From positions 130,530 to 194,529 of IMG/VR virus record IMGVR_UViG_3300012016_000001: DNA of 64,000 nt. One strand, 5' to 3'. This document shows positions 32,044-62,080 of the stretch, piece by piece (position 1 is the first letter of the stretch; every line of letters begins with the position of its first letter). Made by a program: the position numbers and the translations under genes. The DNA is from a virus (lineage: Duplodnaviria > Heunggongvirae > Uroviricota > Caudoviricetes). The notes beneath the pieces were generated by a model. It did no database searches, was not told where the DNA came from, and worked only from the letters and a program-made list of their open reading frames with translations.

Positions 32044-32327
32044 GCGCAACTCTTATTAAGGTTTTCACATTGATCTGGAAAAGACTAGAATCCTGTGTAC
32101 CAATGGCTATGGTCCCAATGCATTACTCTAAGTTCTTCTTTGAAAAACTTGATAAATTTCTCTAAAGGTAATTGTGCTGACACACTTACAGGATAGCAGT
32201 CATTCTATATATACATTCTAACTCTATATCCTTCAGGCTAAAGTTCATCAACTTTTAAGTGCCCTGTGAATTCTTTTTTATATACCTCCTTGATAGTATC
32301 GTGGATTACTTGTTCTATTTTCGTCAT
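32025..32327 (-). CDS. Hypothetical protein between terminase and portal (~100 aa; TAG=Gln)
   Basis: MTKIEQVIHDTIKEVYKKEFTGHLKV...; TAA at 32025. Confidence 0.55.
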
Positions 32328-34602
32328 TTGGTACTACAGTTACCTATACTTTAGGAGTTTTTAAAACATCATCTTTCGGTATTATTCCCCATCTTTTAAC
32401 ACCATATTCGTCTGTATAATAACCAATATCTTGAAACTAATTCTATTCTTCAGGTTCTATTTCAGTAGCAACTACACCATTCATTTCTTCGTCTCCAAGT
32501 TCTGCCATGCCCATAGCGGCTACAATATCGAACTTACGTTTATTTTCTTCACTATATGTAATAAGTTCATTAAGCATTTCTGGAAACCATATATTCTGAC
32601 TATAGTCTTCTACATAGTTAGCTATTAAATCAGTTTGATGTGCAATAACTGCTTTAGTAGCTGGTGTACCATAAGAAGTTTGTATTTTCTTTGAAGCTTC
32701 TGGATATGTAGCTCTAGGTCTCTTCATGAAATAATCGACCCAACCTGCATTTTTAGCCCAGTTAAACATAGATAAACGAGTAGCCTCTATATTACATCTA
32801 CAATTATAATACATCATGAGTTGCATAGCTGTACGATATGCTTCACGTTCATCCTAAGGTCTATCCCTATAGTAAGCCACATACATTGGTTCTTGAGTTC
32901 CAAAAACTCTTTTCTTTATAACTATACAGAAATCAGAAGGGTCTTTGGTTTCTGTTGAAGTTTGTTCCATTCCTATGTCAATACCGTCTATTCCTGCTAC
33001 ATATAAATTACGCATTTCTCTGTATGACATATCATCTTCATTTGTTAATTCCCATAGTGGAGGCTCTACTATATGTACTTTTCCATATGGAGAAGGTATC
33101 CATCTAGCACCTGTTATATTTTTTGGATTAGAATGGTCACCTTTATATATAAACTGTAAACCTCCTGTTTGTATTGGAAGTCCCTGTTTGAGAACTTTAA
33201 TTCTAGTAACCTAGTCTACAAGTAAAACTTTATTAAATTTATTTGTTCCCTCAAGAGCAAAAGCTTCTTCTGCATTAAAACAATACTCAGCAGAATATTC
33301 CATTAAAGCCTTTGGACTTCCTGCTCTCTTTTGTCTTTCTTCTTCATAAAATTTTTTTCCTCTTTCCCAATCACAATAGCCTCTTTCATCCATATAATCT
33401 CCATTATATAGGGCTATATAAGCTGGAATAAAGAAACAGGTCTCTACCCACTCTCCATCCTATGTATAGTTATGATAGTATGGTAGAACATCATGACCTT
33501 TAGGGTCATAATACATATCATGTAAACCTTCTAGATTAGGTCCTTTATCACCTCCAGTTCCACCGGCTAATATTATACCGAACTTATTACCACCAAGTGC
33601 TACAAGAGCTTCTCCTTTAATGAATGACTTTCTAAAGTTTGGATTAGAACCTGCTTCCTCAAGTACTAATAAGTCTACACGGTCACCTCTTATTTTAGCA
33701 TCATCGTCTGCTACTATTCCTTCTATTTGTGATTTCCATCCATCTTCAATTTTCTGTCCTTGTACTATCTTGTAGAAAGAAGCTCTTTTCTTATACTAAG
33801 TATCAACTACCTATCTAAGTTTGAAAAATCCTCCTTCTGTAGAATTATTAAGGAAGTTAAGTTCACTCCAGATTTTTTCAAGAGTTTTGTCTACATAGTT
33901 TTTAGATGCTGCAGTCATTAGAGTATTTGAAGCTCTAAATACACTATACATAGCTGTACATAGACAAGCGTTAATTTCTGAAAAACCACATCCTCTGGAT
34001 TTCATTAGTCCACAATTCTTTTTAAGAACTCTACATAATTCATAGTAATGAAAAAATTCATACTAATATACATAGAAATTCGGATATATAATTCCACGAG
34101 AACTACCAGCTTTTTCAGCATCTGGATTTGGAACTTGATAATAGTTAAGAAAGAAATAATGAGGGCCTGTTACTGTATATCCATTAACAGTAAGTCCTTC
34201 TCTACATCTTACATATTCTTGATGCCAAAAATCAACGTATGCTTTTGAACCAGGTACATAACCACAGTATTTACCTGTTTTTATCTTAGTATCTCTAGCC
34301 TCAGTAAACCATTCAGGTCTGAAATCTAATCCTTTATCCTATGTAATAGGTTTATATCCAGTAATCTCATAGGATAATCTCTTATCGAAAAAAGAAATAG
34401 CAGCATCCTTAGGGACATCCCATTCAGAACGCTGCTACTGCTTTACTTCGGCAACGACCTGTTGCACATATTCCTCTTCATCCTTTTTCTCTTGCTCTAT
34501 TATCTTCTTAACTGTCGCAGCGATTGCTTGCGCTTCTGTTGCTATTTCAGGTAATAAAGCAGATTTCTTTTTAGGACGACCTCTTTTCTTCTATTCGGCC
34601 AT
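32278..34602 (-). CDS. terL: Terminase large subunit (~774 aa; TAG=Gln)
   Basis: 33811-34005, 33211-33393 and 32443-32826 are in frame. ATPase motifs MKSRGCGFSE, LLVLEEAG (Walker B) and AGTGG. Nuclease motifs VAGIDGID and FDIVAAMGM. Confidence 0.88.
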
Positions 34603-46473: not shown

Positions 46474-46634
46474 ATCTTACTGATATTTCATTTAGTTTAT
46501 CTTGCCAATCAATAAATTCTTGTGAATCGAATAAATCGTGTTCCTGCACTAGTCTGTAAATTGCTTCTGCTTCATCAATATGAGCTTGAAAGAGCTGTTT
46601 CCATAATTCCATCATACATTTTCAATTTTATAAG

Positions 46635-46721
46635 TTCCCCCCGTAGGATTCGAACCCACACTTACGCCTTCAGAGGGCTACGGATTTAGAGTCCGCTGTG
46701 CTACCATTACACCAGAGAGGA
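46635..46721 (-). tRNA. Amber suppressor tRNA (anticodon CUA), Gln-like body with an extended variable arm
   Basis: TCCTCTC TG GTGTAATGGTAGCAC A GCGGA-CTCTAAA-TCCGT AGCCCTCTGAAGGCGTAAGT GTGGG-TTCGAAT-CCTAC GGGGGGA A. Anticodon at 46687-46689. Confidence 0.9.
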
Positions 46722-46790
46722 AAGTTGAACTTGGAAGTCCAAGTTCAAAGCGTGAGGAAGAAAGTTCTTCCCGACTTCCAAGTTGAAGCC

Positions 46791-47138
46791 TTATACTCCA
46801 TACTTACTTTGTAGTTTAGAAATTTTCTGTGCAACTACTTTTCTAACTATATTCTTAAACTTATTAATTAGTTCTGGAGTAATATCTTTAATCTTAGCTA
46901 AGTCTTGTCCAGTTACATGCGTATAGTACTCACAAGCAGCTATAAAAATGTCATCATCTAGGGTCTTTAAATATTCTTCAAATTGCCCTTGATAATCTTT
47001 CTCCTTAATTTCCATAATTAGTTTATTATTTTCTTGAGAAATATTTACATCATACTCTCCATTTCCAAAAAGAGTGGGGCATAAATCGTTTAGGGTCTGA
47101 CCTAAAGCAGCAATTTCAATTTTTTCTAATTGTCTCAT
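46791..47138 (-). CDS. Hypothetical protein
   Basis: Uninterrupted 115-aa ORF upstream of the suppressor tRNA. Confidence 0.65.
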   Translation of the reverse strand: MRQLEKIEIAALGQTLNDLCPTLFGNGEYDVNISQENNKLIMEIKEKDYQGQFEEYLKTLDDDIFIAACEYYTHVTGQDLAKIKDITPELINKFKNIVRKVVAQKISKLQSKYGV

Positions 47139-49793: not shown

Positions 49794-50044
49794 ACACAAA
49801 AGAACTATTGCAGGAGTTTGAAAGCAAATGGAACGAGAAGTTGTCTGTGTATGATGAGAAGTCCTACATAGACTTCTTCCAGTTTCTAAAATGGAGAAAC
49901 ATCTTCCAAGAGAAGAAGTGAACAGAGTTCTCAATGAAGCAAGAAGCATTGTGTATCAGACACAAAAGCCCTTTATAATAAATGGGCGTCTTGTGCTTGC
50001 TTCATCTCTGGAAGAAGCAAAGTCACGTTTGCAGGGTTGAAATT

Positions 50045-51045
50045 CCCGGAAGAACAGTGTTCTTCCTTAAATGTCTATAGTGTAATTACCTCTACGTGGT
50101 ATAGATAGATATTCTCAGATTTACGTAAAGACGGAATAGGAGATAACTAAACATTACACCGGCGGGCTTCTCGTCGTACAGTGTGTTGCCAAGCACACGA
50201 TAGGATAAACTAGCAATAGTATAAAGTGGCACAATAGTGTGCTGCACTCCTCCTTTATAAAGGGAGAAGGCCAAAAGAAAGCTAAGTAGCAAACAGCAAA
50301 GTTGGTGTATTGGACGGGCAGTTCAAGATAGACTTTGCGTTGGATCTGAACAGTCCAACTTAACTCGTGAGAGGGATAATTTGCTTCTTAAATACATGTC
50401 CGAAGACGTGCAAGGTCTAAGAGCGTGTATAATCTAAACGTGTGTATCTCTAAATGCTGTGAGCAAGACAGCACTTGGCTTTGCAACCAAGCAGAAATGG
50501 GAGATACTAGCCTACAGAAATGAGTAAGCGTTGCGGCTGAAAGTAAGAAGGGGTTGTAACCTGCAGCTACTCAAAAGGTAGTATGGTTATCAAGACCAAG
50601 CTCCTCTTCTATGAACGTTCCTTATCAATCTCAGTTAGTTCAGAGGTAGAACGAGACGCTCTAAACGTCCAAACGATGGTGCAATTCCATCACTGAAATT
50701 AAATTAAATCGATAAGTATCTAAACAAGCAAAATGCTTGGTCACGCATAATGACAATGCAGTTGTTCCTCTGTAATACGAGGACTTTTGAGTAGGACGCA
50801 ATCCCAAAGAAAGAAATGAAACAAGTATGTAATTGGGCGCCAGGAGGCATCTTGGTTAAAACCGCAAAACCCAAGACAGAAAGAAGTAATTTACTTATTT
50901 ATGCGTAGTGGAAATGCAATTCACATTGCATCTGCATGCTGGCTACTTTGAGAAATCGAAGTGTGACTTTAGTCTGAAAGGATTATAATGCCAGTGGAGA
51001 CAAAATCTCCTTACTAAAGGGTCAAAAGCCTCAGCCCTTTATTCT
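50045..51045 (+). ncRNA. Putative large structured ncRNA (GOLLD/ROOL-class candidate) containing a tRNA
   Basis: ~1 kb without a credible ORF. Dense nested helices, e.g. gtatctc 50444-50450 / gagatac 50501-50507 and agaagggg 50546-50553 / cctcttct 50603-50610, plus many short hairpins. Boundaries are approximate and family identity is not established. Confidence 0.6.
50629..50699 (+). tRNA. Second amber suppressor tRNA (anticodon CUA), non-canonical
   Basis: TCTCAGT TA GTTCAGAGGTAGAAC G AGACG-CTCTAAA-CGTCC AAAC GATGG-TGCAATT-CCATC ACTGAAA T. Anticodon at 50661-50663. One acceptor-stem mismatch, one anticodon-stem mismatch, TGC in place of TTC in the T loop. Confidence 0.75.
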
Positions 51046-51109
51046 TTTGTACATTCTTTTTTATCCCAATAATAAGACCCTTCGTGATGAATCGTCTTTT
51101 CTATGGTAC

Positions 51110-51193
51110 TCTCACTAATATTATCCACTTGTGAAAGCCGATATTGGAACTAAACACAGCAATGTGCGTCTGGTTCGAATCCAGAAGTGAGGA
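51110..51193 (+). ncRNA. tRNA-like element (acceptor stem plus T arm, no normal D or anticodon arm)
   Basis: TCTCACT/AGTGAGG acceptor; TCTGG-TTCGAAT-CCAGA T arm; CACA-GCAA-TGTG hairpin. Confidence 0.55.
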
Positions 51194-51211
51194 CTTAACA
51201 CCTTTAAAATT

Positions 51212-51496
51212 ATGAAGAAACTTGTACTAGTTCTTGTAGCATTGTTTACATTGTCTCTTTCGAACAGTGCGCAGGAAGTAAAACAGCAGGGAAAGACCTT
51301 TGAGGTCACTAAGAAAGAGAAGGTAAAGAGTGAACCCAAAGATACGGGCTACACAATTACCATTAATGGTATCACGTATCCCATTTATAAAGGGGAACGT
51401 GGTGGTTACTACTACATCATTGTGGTAAATGGAGAGAAAAAGAAAAAGTATGTTCCAGCTGAAGTAAAACGTAAACTAAAAGAGGCTGGAGTATGA
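51212..51496 (+). CDS. Small protein with an N-terminal signal peptide
   Basis: MKKLVLVLVALFTLSLSNSAQE..., a Sec-type signal followed by a basic body. Confidence 0.7.
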   Translation: MKKLVLVLVALFTLSLSNSAQEVKQQGKTFEVTKKEKVKSEPKDTGYTITINGITYPIYKGERGGYYYIIVVNGEKKKKYVPAEVKRKLKEAGV

Positions 51497-57770: not shown

Positions 57771-58512
57771 TGAAGAAACAAATTAGGTATCTTCACATTT
57801 ATTTACATTAATTATTCATTTTTAAATGGTAGACGTAATCTTTTAGTGGTATATTCATACCATGAAAAAGGTTAATTATACTAAAGAACTCCTAGAAGAG
57901 AATGTAAAGGATTGCTATTCATTTGCAGAGCTCTGTAGAAGACTAGGATTGAAGCCTGAGGGTTCTAACCCTAAGACTTTAAGAAAAAAGATGGATGAAT
58001 TTGGTGTAGATTATTCACATTTTACTGGACAGCGATGGAATACAAATCCTAACAATCCAGTTTATAAAGGTAGATATTTACCTAATCTTTGTAAACATAG
58101 CTCTCTAAGTACTGTTAATACTAAAGCAATGCTTTATAGGCTAGGTTTAAAAGAAAACAAATGTGAAATATGTGGATTGTCTGAATGGCTCGGAAAACCT
58201 ATACAATGTGAATTACATCACATTAATGGGGATTCAACTGATAATAGAATAGAGAACTTGCAGATTCTCTGTCCAAATTGTCATAGTCAAACAGATAATT
58301 TTAGGGGTAAGAATATCCCGAAGGTAATGAGTGCACAGAGGGAAACTTCTGATGTAGAAGCAGGCTAACTCGGTGAAAGCAACAGCCTTATAAGTGTTGT
58401 CAACGCCGAACTAAATTCACGTTTGTGATAAATGCGTACAGACTATACACCTGCAACCTAAACATTTATATGCATGGTTTAGACATAGTCGGGGGAGAAA
58501 CCTAACTTCCTG
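57771..58512 (+). mobile_element. Group I intron with homing endonuclease
   Basis: Exon ends in U and intron ends in G. IGS gagt 58329-58332 pairs with exon ACUU (G-U at the splice site). P3 gcagg 58360-64 / cctgc 58450-54; P7 gacta 58441-45 / tagtc 58486-90; P4-like ctcggtg / cgccgaa. Confidence 0.85.
57862..58368 (+). CDS. Intron-encoded HNH homing endonuclease
   Basis: KCEICG...ELHHINGDSTDNRIENLQILCPNCHSQT, with an N-terminal helical DNA-binding repeat. Confidence 0.9.
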   Translation: MKKVNYTKELLEENVKDCYSFAELCRRLGLKPEGSNPKTLRKKMDEFGVDYSHFTGQRWNTNPNNPVYKGRYLPNLCKHSSLSTVNTKAMLYRLGLKENKCEICGLSEWLGKPIQCELHHINGDSTDNRIENLQILCPNCHSQTDNFRGKNIPKVMSAQRETSDVEAG

Positions 58513-59189: not shown

Positions 59190-60509
59190 ATGGGAAAAAT
59201 AATCTCTAATTTACATAAAAAATATTACTATTTTAAAGATGTAAACGCAAAGTTTGATGCCACTCCAGGAACTTCAATAGGAGCAAGTAGTAACATTACT
59301 AATAATAATTAGCTATAGGTTGGACCATATGACATAAATGGTAACGCTTATAAATACACTAATACTAATGCGCATAAACTAATGTTAGATTCTGATGTAA
59401 CTAAAAAGGATTTTGTTATATCTATAGGAATACCATCTTATGCTGAAGGTTATGATGCGAATTATTGTATAAGCTCAACAGGAATGGACCCTTCTTAGAC
59501 TAGATCTAAATTAAAAGATTATCGTGTTACATAGAGTCATCACAGTGATGAATAGACTGGATGGGGAGGAACTATTGAAAATAAAGGAGCTCCATTTATA
59601 ATTAAAGGAAATCCTAATACTCAAGTATTTCCATATTTAAACTAGTATTGTCTAGGTAGTACAGATTATAATGGAAATGGGAATAATTGGTATTATTGGA
59701 ATGGAAGTTCTTTTGCTAATACAAGCTGGATTAATATACCTTACTATTACTCGGGAGGGCATGGATCTGGTATAGAAACTCCTGGTAGAGAATTACATGT
59801 AATGGGTTGGAAACTTTATGTTATCAACTATTCTGAGGATATGATAGATTATTATGATTATGTTGCAAGCGAAAGTATTAATAGTTTTAGAGCAACTCTT
59901 GATTAGTATGAGTATGAAACTTATGGTAGTGGATTTATAAAAAACTGGGTTGATAATGACCCCATAGAAGACATTTTAGAAGTTAGTGATTTAATTCCTT
60001 ATAACTAGGTTTGGCTGAAAACAATGGGTACTGATAATGTTGGTAGTATATATAATTAGGCTTTAACTACTATAGGCCCATATTTGTCTGGAAAGACTTT
60101 GTTAGGTTTAGAGTTAGCAGTAGTTGATAAGACAATTGGTACAAGTATTGTTGTTCCATTTGATCAAGGAAATGTTACACCAGTTATTCCTAGTAATAGT
60201 GTGAATGGGTATTAGTCAATATCTACTAATCCATATGAAGTGGATTATTCTCCTATATATATAGCTCCAGAAGTATTAACTAATCCATCTTATTATTATT
60301 ATTATGGAAAGAGTTGGCAAGAATATTATGGTATGACAAGTGCAGGAGTTCCTGAGTATGGAAATGTTAACATGTATGGTTTATTCTATTTAATACCTAT
60401 ATGTCATTACCGTCTAAATGTAGGAAAAGATATACATAACTTAGCTTATTCAACTAATAGTCTTTGTATTACAATGCACAAGATGGGACCAGCAGCAACA
60501 TGGTTTTAA
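59190..60509 (+). CDS. Hypothetical Tyr/Asn/Gly-rich protein (~439 aa; TAG=Gln)
   Basis: ATG at 59190, in frame with 60240-60509; several in-frame TAGs (e.g. NNN-Q-L-Q-VG). Confidence 0.65.
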
Positions 60510-60518
60510 TAGATAAAT

Positions 60519-60601
60519 GCGCTTATGGCGGAACGGTAGACGCCCTAGACTTAGGATCTAGTGCCCGCAAGGGCGTGAGAGTTCGAATCTCTCTAAGCGC
60601 A
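60519..60601 (+). tRNA. trnL: tRNA-Leu(UAG)
   Basis: GCGCTTA...CTAGA-CTTAGGA-TCTAG, variable arm GCCCGCAAGGGC, GAGAG-TTCGAAT-CTCTC, TAAGCGC A. Confidence 0.93.
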
Positions 60602-60607
60602 CAAGTT

Positions 60608-62080
60608 ATGAAGAAATGTGTTTATATAGTAATTGCGGGTAAATATGATTACCCTTTTGCTCATTCTATAAGAAGACCTGATTTTGATTATATATGCTTT
60701 ACTGATGATGAAACTATATAGAGTGATTTTTGGGAAATAAGACCAATACCAGAAGAGCTCAAAGATTTATCTCCAGTTAGATAGAATAGAGCAATTAAAA
60801 TAAGACCACATTTATACCTTCCAGATTATGAATACTCTATTTATATAGATGCTAATTATGATTTAGTTACTTATCCTCCTTATTTAAATACTATTCTATG
60901 TGTAAACGGACACGAGAAAAGAAAATGTTTATATAAGGAAGCAGAAGTATGTATAGTAAAAGGTAAAGATGACCCAGAGATTATAAATAGATAGATTGAA
61001 TTCTATAGAAAATGTGGAGTACCGTAGAATTACGGGTTATGGCATTGTCATTATATAGCTAGACATCATAATAATCTTACTTGTATAGCTATGATGGAAG
61101 ATTGGTGGGAACAAGTAGAAACTTACTCTTTTAGAGATTAGATATCTTTTCCATATATAATGTGGAAATATAAATATTCTCCAGGAATAATAAACTATAG
61201 TTATTAGTTTAATCCTCATTGTAATTATGGAAGAGAAAGAACTTATATTCAGCCAAGAACCTATAATGCTGAAATTAATCCACGTGTTGCAGTTTGTTGT
61301 GTAGAAAAACTTGAAAATCAGTATATAAGGGAATTTGTAAATCATTATCGTTCTCTAGGTTTTGGACATATATTTATGTATGATACAAATAGTCCAGAAT
61401 AGGATGATGTGTTCGAAATAATAGGTGACTACATAGCTAATGGATATGTTACACTTATTAAATGGTCAGGCAAACCTATGTTAGAAGTAAGAAAAGCCTT
61501 TCAAGACTGTTATACTGAAAGGTTAAAGGATTATGATTGGTGTTTATTTGTTGACCCAGATGAGTTCTTAGAATTATATAAAGACGATAACATTACTTCC
61601 TATTTAAATAGGTTATCTGATTATGACATCATTCGTATAAATTGGAAGACTATGGATGACAATGATTTAATAGAGAATAGTGGTTTACCTCTTAAATAGC
61701 GTTTTACTAGAACTGCTAATCATGAATCCGATAGAAGCTACAAGTCTTTATTACGTACTAATCTATCTAATATTGATTTTGTTCGTTTTGGTAGTGCGCA
61801 TGGACCTTATTCAAAAGAGCATCTAATATGTGATAATACAGGAAAAAGAATAACTAAATATATAAATAGGCCTTTCACTCCAGAATGTAATTGGGATGAT
61901 GCTGCATTATTACATTATAGGTGTAAAACGATGGAAGAATATATAAAGAATAAGATTCCTAAATTATAGGGATATAATTTCTTGAACTTCAATATGAGGT
62001 TTTTCTTCCAATACAATATTCCTACTGAAAAGAAAATAAAAGCTTATAAACAACTTGAAACCGAAAATGAAAGATTTTGA
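60608..62080 (+). CDS. Fused glycosyltransferase: DUF616-like domain plus GT2/GT92-like domain (~490 aa; TAG=Gln)
   Basis: DYICFTDD, IKIRPHLYLPDYEYSIYIDAN, SFRD-Q(TAG)-ISFPY; then YIREFVNHYRSLGFGHIFMYD...WCLFVDPDEFL. Confidence 0.85.

Follow-up and report, generated by a model that had tools for sequence, protein, structure and literature searches.

A divergent GOLLD RNA with an amber-anticodon, tRNA-shaped insert in a UAG-recoded crAss-like phage

About one kilobase of a phage genome that appears to read UAG as a sense codon lacks a credible reading frame and encloses a tRNA-shaped sequence with the anticodon CUA; the locus raises the question of what this RNA is and whether the enclosed tRNA is the one that recodes the phage. 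The original prediction, drawn from the letters of positions 50045–51045, proposed a giant, ornate non-coding RNA, possibly of a new class, hosting the tRNA that flips the genetic code. The window, i.e., the whole stretch of DNA analysed here, comprises the last 64 kb of a virus record of 194,529 bases, whose first 50 bases are repeated at its end.

The record contains 25 tRNA genes and a tmRNA, and the sequencing runs containing the stretch are mostly bovine gut metagenomes. The terminase and portal are of the crAss-like type, the terminase being 27–30% identical to those of named crAss-like phages, and the phage resembles the Zeta group (Crassvirales) by size, tRNA load and recoding, as these features are given in the accessible text of PMC7886860 and PMC12386605. 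Long structural ORFs stay open only with TAG read through. In 26 conserved-context columns, taken genome-wide from two relatives, the residue opposite the TAG codons was Q in 14, E in 6, TAG in 2, G in 2 and K in 2; UAG is, judging by these alignments, decoded as glutamine. A tRNA-Leu(UAG) (60519–60602, +) sits where two long TAG-containing frames meet (59190–60509 and 60464–62080), with an HNH endonuclease gene (57826–58368) nearby.

Identity of the RNA

At the gathering level, the Rfam search reports nothing but tRNAs in the 64-kb window; GOLLD surfaces only in E-value mode, where RF02032 was aligned over model positions 1–416 of 416 at 50546–51012 (56.6 bits, E 9.8e-14). The gathering cut-off for GOLLD is 150 bits, and the score of 56.6 bits includes a penalty for a 58-base insertion. 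None of the 14 control genomes gave a GOLLD match. The CUA tRNA falls in the unstructured variable linker of the model, and the + strand is assigned to the RNA by the model match rather than by reads. GOLLD had been named for comparison in the original prediction and turned out to be matched by its whole model; of the other families named there, neither ROOL (RF03087) nor tmRNA, RNase P RNA or group I/II introns matched, and no Rfam family besides GOLLD and tRNA was found at 49900–51300 with E up to 10. No Rfam ribozyme family matched next to the tRNA insert. The longest + strand ORF in the region has 75 aa with TAG read as Q, and rumen alleles insert 17 bases or 1 base within this frame, so the region is unlikely to be coding, in agreement with the original prediction.

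Homologues were collected by pattern scans. A first broad sequence pattern gave mostly chance matches (only 6 of 120 loci had a match to the region with E <0.01); in one scan, 15 of 16 loci were GOLLD-like by eye, and another added 31 loci, on partly shared contigs. The RF02032 scores of the homologues were 93–118 bits for six of nine in one, insert-free set and 54–115 bits for five of eleven in another set. Three narrow patterns scanned over viral contigs revealed no further full-length CUA-bearing GOLLD copy, and L138, one close metagenome homologue, stops before the linker. A blastn search of the region against annotated phages gave no match, and the same search with the GOLLD homologue of the relative G002 gave tRNA-sized matches only. 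No related loci were found for the 94-aa protein encoded downstream of the RNA.

Architecture, covariation and expression

The features of the locus are listed in Table 1. The 3'-domain alignment included the window and 22 full-length homologues, with duplicates, near-duplicates and truncated loci left out. Both-side changes were found at 56 of the 60 named pairs in these 23 sequences, and 89% of the cells were paired; shuffles gave 65.5% (none of 500 reached the observed value) and slid controls 33–52%. As four of the ten helices counted use registers from RNAalifold on the same alignment, the figure for the 60 pairs leans upward. One 3'-domain helix is paired in just 62% of the alignment. 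In the 5' domain, of which several subtypes exist among the homologues, double changes occur at 40 of 51 predicted pairs (50200–50625, nine sequences). The conserved motifs and helices of GOLLD thus covary among the homologues, and the proposal of one giant structured non-coding RNA hosting a tRNA-shaped element is borne out.

Table 1. Features of the RNA locus and two further genes in the 64-kb window
Feature	Coordinates	Strand	Evidence and remarks
Divergent GOLLD RNA, ~1.0 kb	50034..51040	+	Rfam RF02032, covariation, RNA-library contig; 5' end between ~50034 and 50085
Variable 5' domain	50034..50545	+	Outside the Rfam model; starts with a short hairpin, the loop of which recurs in L138, G001 and G002
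Long hairpin with which the Rfam model starts	50546..50610	+	Conserved UCAAAAG-loop stem at 50567-50581
8-bp pseudoknot spanning the linker	50594..50742 (50594-50601 with 50735-50742)	+	23 homologues
Predicted 6-bp stalk beneath the tRNA	50621..50716 (50621-50626 with 50711-50716)	+	Prediction, z-scores not significant
tRNA-shaped insert, anticodon CUA at 50661-50663	50629..50699	+	ARAGORN; Rfam tRNA 52.6 bits
Conserved GOLLD 3' domain	50726..51040	+	AAGCAAAA motif; helices 50743-50750/50899-50906 and 50756-50761/50932-50937; terminal hairpin 51016-51040
Free-standing CUA tRNA	46634..46721	-	Full 7-bp acceptor stem, A73, D arm matching the tRNA-Gln of the genome
Terminase large subunit	32278..34602	-	12 in-frame TAG codons; marks a recoded, crAss-like genome

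All 11 pairs of helix arms that had been named from the letters are present in 50045–51045, and two of them need a comment. The arms tcttgg and ccaaga exist, but the homologues favour the pairing of tcttgg with 50840–50845 (helix 5) over ccaaga; the ggaga/tctcc hairpin is present as well, but as an insertion found only in this genome among the 23 aligned sequences. The terminal hairpin, which is the true 3' end of the RNA, was missed by the Rfam model owing to an inserted hairpin peculiar to this genome. The proposed bounds also hold in part: the RNA does occupy the region, but it probably starts slightly upstream of 50045, its 5' end being confined by a conserved hairpin (50034–50047) on one side and by position 50085 on the other. 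No sigma-70-type promoter was found for the RNA, and the 5' hairpin motif, considered as a repeated promoter, found no support, occurring once in the genome.

The pseudoknot that spans the linker had a longest run of 7–9 bp in all 23 homologues, with a mean duplex energy of -11.9 kcal/mol for own pairs versus -6.0 kcal/mol for cross-pairs; it would hold both domains together around the tRNA. The distance from the hairpin to the 3' domain is 69–99 bases in 21 homologues and 155 and 164 bases in two with a tRNA. A stalk under the tRNA is predicted in G001 (8 bp), and none is clear in G002. The folding z-scores of three parts of the RNA were -4.0, -2.4 and -1.8, and those of six control windows ranged from -0.9 to -3.6, so that folding energy by itself does not separate the RNA from the coding flanks. 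A perfect 11-base complement joins the UCAAAAG hairpin and a 3'-domain stem (50567–50577 and 50784–50794); the homologues do not conserve it, and it was discarded as a candidate structural pairing.

Just 3' of the RNA, at 51096–51194 (+), lies a degenerate tRNA-like element with an acceptor and a T arm and without a normal anticodon arm, called by ARAGORN only at a relaxed threshold; tRNA-like calls occur at a similar place in G002 (L165), L140 and L152, and the element may serve the maturation of the 3' end. Self-cleaving ribozymes lie near several homologous GOLLD RNAs (pistol at L025, L033, L150 and L159; hatchet at L158), that of L033 directly after the 3' end of GOLLD.

Expression was judged from contigs of the RNA runs X2, X3 and X6, which belong to three rumen RNA studies, and of the DNA run X4. 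In X2, one contig of 979 bases covers 50085–51065, including the tRNA, at a depth of 27, with flanks at 2.6–4.6; the contrast between region and flanks is similar in X3 and X6, whereas the depth in X4 is flat (2–5.5). These data support an abundant 1-kb transcript and fall short of proof: assembled contigs show no strand, ends or true level, a small excised tRNA would escape them, DNA may be present in RNA libraries, and this stretch was itself used to find the runs.

A new class of giant RNA that only looks like GOLLD could find support in the 56.6 bits against a cut-off of 150, in homologues without the insert that reach just 93–118 bits, and in a 5' domain of which ~510 bases are not covered by the Rfam model. 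The whole model is matched, however, with the invariant motifs of GOLLD in order, and the helices of the model covary; moreover, variability of the 5' domain belongs to GOLLD as described, and the threshold for collecting members in the cryo-EM study was E 1e-5 (10.1101/2024.12.08.627333, accessible text), which the present match passes. The novelty supposed in the original prediction is thereby largely refuted, and such a class seems to us hardly credible. Given the whole-model match, the covarying helices and the matching 3'/5'/linker architecture, the RNA is, as far as comparison of sequences tells, a divergent GOLLD of a UAG-recoded crAss-like phage; it is regarded as a divergent variant and not as a typical member since its whole subfamily scores under the Rfam cut-off.

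The linker insert and the other CUA tRNAs

The presence of a CUA tRNA inside the RNA was confirmed (Table 1). The insert has its anticodon flanked by U33 and A37, and it deviates from a regular tRNA in the mismatches C2.A71 and A27.C43, in G55 in the T loop, in U73 and in having no encoded CCA. It is unlike tRNA-Gln, with U73 and a different D arm, and its best alignments are weak, to Arg, Asn and Val tRNAs. Among 31 loci scanned, a linker tRNA was present in two, those of the relatives G001 and G002; in G011 and G012, GOLLD is present and its linker has no tRNA. Across relatives the slot holds CUA, AUU, other sequence or nothing. The G001 and G002 tRNAs (G001:C1:243-317 and G002:C1:73489-73564) have the anticodon AUU (Asn, A34; unusual for bacteria), and that of G002 is closest to tRNA-Asn genes. 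By eye, the G012 linker (L266) holds a long hairpin in place of the tRNA.

A survey of 90 tRNA genes in this genome and six relatives indicated that pair 2-71 is broken in three of three GOLLD-embedded tRNAs versus 1 of 87 others (Fisher p 3e-5, or 8e-4 with the two AUU cases taken as one; the genomes with embedded tRNAs number three, and two may share one origin). The lone free tRNA with a broken 2-71 pair is probably a pseudogene or a mis-parse.

Four further tRNA-bearing alleles of 50590–50770 were found in sequencing runs, together with two in which 60–61 other letters stand in place of 95–98 bases of the linker. One of the latter comes from RNA run X3 and one from DNA run X4, so the replacement is genomic and not a product of splicing; the alternative linker (50626–50725) could be another tRNA-like form. 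Around 24 of the 71 insert positions vary among the five alleles, while the D stem and the 7-base anticodon loop are unchanged in all of them (p ~0.05 for the loop, 0.28 for the anticodon alone). The constancy of the loop is no more than suggestive and fits decoding as well as decoying. Six double compensatory changes were found at five pairs (27-43, 29-41, 31-39 twice, 51-63 and 52-62) and maintain the anticodon and T stems, pair 27-43 being restored or kept in three alleles. In none of the four other alleles do both of the top two acceptor pairs form, and three alleles have lost 1–2 bases at the 5' end of the acceptor. Three alleles have a broken pair 50-64 and one a broken pair 29-41, and G18 is missing from three; to judge by the broken pairs, plain decay accounts for part of the change.

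The insert might be a passenger, a decaying tRNA gene that once entered a linker tolerant of it and whose fold persists only because, being compact, it does not disturb GOLLD. This would suit the variable presence and identity of the linker tRNA, the replaced alleles, the non-canonical D- and T-loop bases and the concentration of 9 of the 27 listed X2-contig substitutions within the 71-base insert. Yet the compensatory changes, with the unchanged D stem and anticodon loop, argue for selection on the whole cloverleaf, and unrelated tRNAs in the same slot show the same 2-71 break, which leaves simple decay an improbable explanation of the insert.

Perhaps the insert is instead a processing site, where an RNase P-like enzyme reads the elbow and cuts GOLLD, the pieces staying joined by the pseudoknot and the anticodon being incidental. 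G19 and C56 are constant across all alleles, the T stem is compensated and a covarying clamp crosses the linker, as this explanation would have it. The anticodon stem is not needed by bacterial RNase P, but here it is the most compensated arm. In addition, the RNA-library contigs run across both ends of the tRNA, the depths of the X3 linker alleles (20.5 + 27.5) sum to the flank depth of 45–47, a weak hint of little cutting, and the clamp also occurs in homologues without a tRNA. Taken together, these data make a cutting site a rather doubtful role for the insert.

The genome has two CUA tRNAs besides the embedded copy. The free-standing one (Table 1) is preceded by a perfect 10-bp hairpin (46725–46748, -), located 2–3 bases 5' of it, with a competing complement ~40 bases further upstream; hairpins of different sequence occur at the same place in G001, G002, G006 and G008. 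The third CUA tRNA (G000:C1:7229-7302) lies outside the window in the main tRNA array, which is ~16 kb from the GOLLD RNA across the joined ends; its acceptor stem is intact, and its position 33 is G.

Of 80 terminase relatives, 40, mostly the longest, were taken for the GOLLD search and 37 were searched; by the Rfam model and nhmmer profiles, GOLLD was found in 4 of the 37 and in 1 of the 19 near-complete ones. The closest relatives, G006 and G008 (terminase 72–74% identical), have no GOLLD at the syntenic site, and none was found in two GenBank relatives, which are partial sequences. The terminase genes of all six relatives compared (G001, G002, G006, G008, G011 and G012) contain TAG, with eight such codons each in G001 and G002; the TAG-recoded G002 also has a UCA (opal) tRNA (L179:5881-5953). 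A counterpart of the free CUA tRNA is present in six of six recoded relatives, in five of them beside a homologue of ORF 46791–47138, and the copies of G001, G002 and G008 are nearly identical to that of the window. An exact Gln-type suppressor pattern matched 3 of 29 genomes and was too strict, since ARAGORN found CUA tRNAs in three genomes that the pattern had missed.

Since GOLLD and its insert vary among the relatives and the free CUA tRNA is constant, recoding tracks the free tRNA, not GOLLD or the insert. It is likely that the free tRNA supplies the working amber suppressor. The claim that the embedded tRNA flips the genetic code is consequently unlikely: an intact Gln-type tRNA with a counterpart in each of the six recoded relatives compared exists elsewhere, whereas the acceptor end of the embedded copy is eroded and these relatives have another tRNA, or none, in its place.

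A related proposal, close to the sequestering or timed release suggested in the original prediction, is that GOLLD stores a working amber suppressor, which is cut out late for the TAG-rich virion and lysis genes. In this case, the cage would shield the CUA tRNA, and the giant RNA would contribute to the timing of the code switch and, through it, of virion assembly and lysis. The CUA anticodon with U33 and A37, the loop constant in five of five alleles and the TAG-to-Gln recoding of late genes are consistent with this proposal; the pseudoknot would keep GOLLD whole after excision, and poor charging could be compensated by the presence of very many GOLLD copies. Release and storage of linker tRNAs ("inhibited storage") has already been proposed for GOLLD generally in the accessible text of the review PMC12990946. 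On the other hand, pair 2-71 is broken and 1–2 bases are lost in the acceptor end; U73 and the D arm are unlike those of the tRNA-Gln of the genome, which has an intact suppressor elsewhere; four recoded GOLLD-bearing relatives have no CUA insert and two closer ones no GOLLD; and no Rfam ribozyme match was found beside the insert. Storage of a working suppressor is, on these grounds, an unlikely function.

Possible role of the insert and relation to known systems

As the amino-acid-accepting end of the insert is broken, it is likely a built-in mimic, and the separate intact tRNA is likely the one that recodes. The explanation that we consider probable, with some reserve, is that the CUA insert is a swappable, shape-conserved tRNA module retained in GOLLD and probably uncharged, with the free tRNA as the likely suppressor. 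If it behaves like the solved GOLLD members, the RNA would form a cage of several copies that encloses the linker. The insert would stay attached to GOLLD, and an abundant multivalent RNA would thus display many tRNA shapes, which may serve as a handle or a decoy for host tRNA-binding factors; for example, a host anticodon nuclease aimed at the real suppressor might be soaked up by the insert. An anticodon-nuclease decoy is a concrete possibility because the insert shares its 7-base anticodon loop with the free suppressor. Glutaminyl-tRNA synthetase (GlnRS) prefers a weak 1-72 pair and mischarges CUA tRNAs, so slight charging of the insert is possible.

The RNA shares with known GOLLD members (RF02032) its phage origin, a length of ~1 kb, a 3' domain matching the whole model, a variable 5' domain, a linker capable of holding a tRNA and apparent abundance; the accessible text of 10.1101/2024.12.08.627333 depicts GOLLD with a 3' region that is conserved, a 5' region that is variable and an unresolved linker, situated within the cage and with tRNAs "sometimes present" in it. 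It differs in scoring below the gathering cut-off, in being longer than the solved members of 700–833 bases, and in residing in a UAG-recoded crAss-like gut phage with an amber anticodon in its linker tRNA. GOLLD is known to travel with tRNA clusters (PMC9569102, accessible part). Mycobacterial GOLLD holds tRNA-Phe in J13/15, according to the accessible text of PMC12990946, and in one report, again as far as its accessible text goes, a pseudo-tRNA inside mycobacterial GOLLD had no separate expression (PMC6582537). The slot is the same here, but it holds CUA and AUU tRNAs, its content differs between close strains, and all three genomes have a broken 2-71 pair; PMC7549688 may describe similar defects.

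The amber suppressors of recoded crAss-like phages (accessible parts of PMC7886860, 10.1101/2021.08.26.457843 and PMC12386605) likewise carry CUA and serve genomes with TAG read as Gln in structural and lysis genes, whereas the embedded copy has neither an intact acceptor end nor a Gln-type D arm, the conventional suppressor being the free tRNA. A further parallel is offered by the theta ribozyme-suppressor tRNA pairs, for which the accessible text of PMC10879173 gives a structured RNA in cis with a suppressor tRNA, recoded gut phages and a proposed timing of the code switch; there, however, a small self-cleaving ribozyme sits at the 3' end of the tRNA, and here a 1-kb RNA without an Rfam ribozyme match surrounds it. 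ROOL (RF03087) is also a large cage-forming phage RNA found near tRNAs, but it gave no match here with E up to 10.

Accordingly, tRNAs in GOLLD linkers, an unexpressed inner pseudo-tRNA, suppressors in recoded phages and theta ribozymes beside suppressors are already known. An amber-anticodon tRNA in a GOLLD linker and a GOLLD in a UAG-recoded crAss-like phage are apparently new: no report of an amber-anticodon GOLLD or of GOLLD in crAss-like phages was found in searches of the openly accessible literature on GOLLD together with tRNAs, phages, crAss-like phages and suppressors, on GOLLD by itself since 2020, and on tRNA-like decoys of anticodon nucleases, and the 806 GOLLD sequences of the cryo-EM study (10.1101/2024.12.08.627333, accessible text) may include crAss-like cases.

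These results indicate that a GOLLD subfamily in crAss-like and other phages escapes standard Rfam annotation, and they caution against taking every CUA tRNA called in a recoded phage for a working suppressor. For the proposed release of GOLLD linker tRNAs, the locus would offer an easy test, because the amber anticodon gives a zero-background reporter and natural alleles (CUA, AUU, replaced linker and no insert) are ready controls. The 2-71 break common to the embedded tRNAs suggests that GOLLD linker tRNAs are selected for shape, not for charging.
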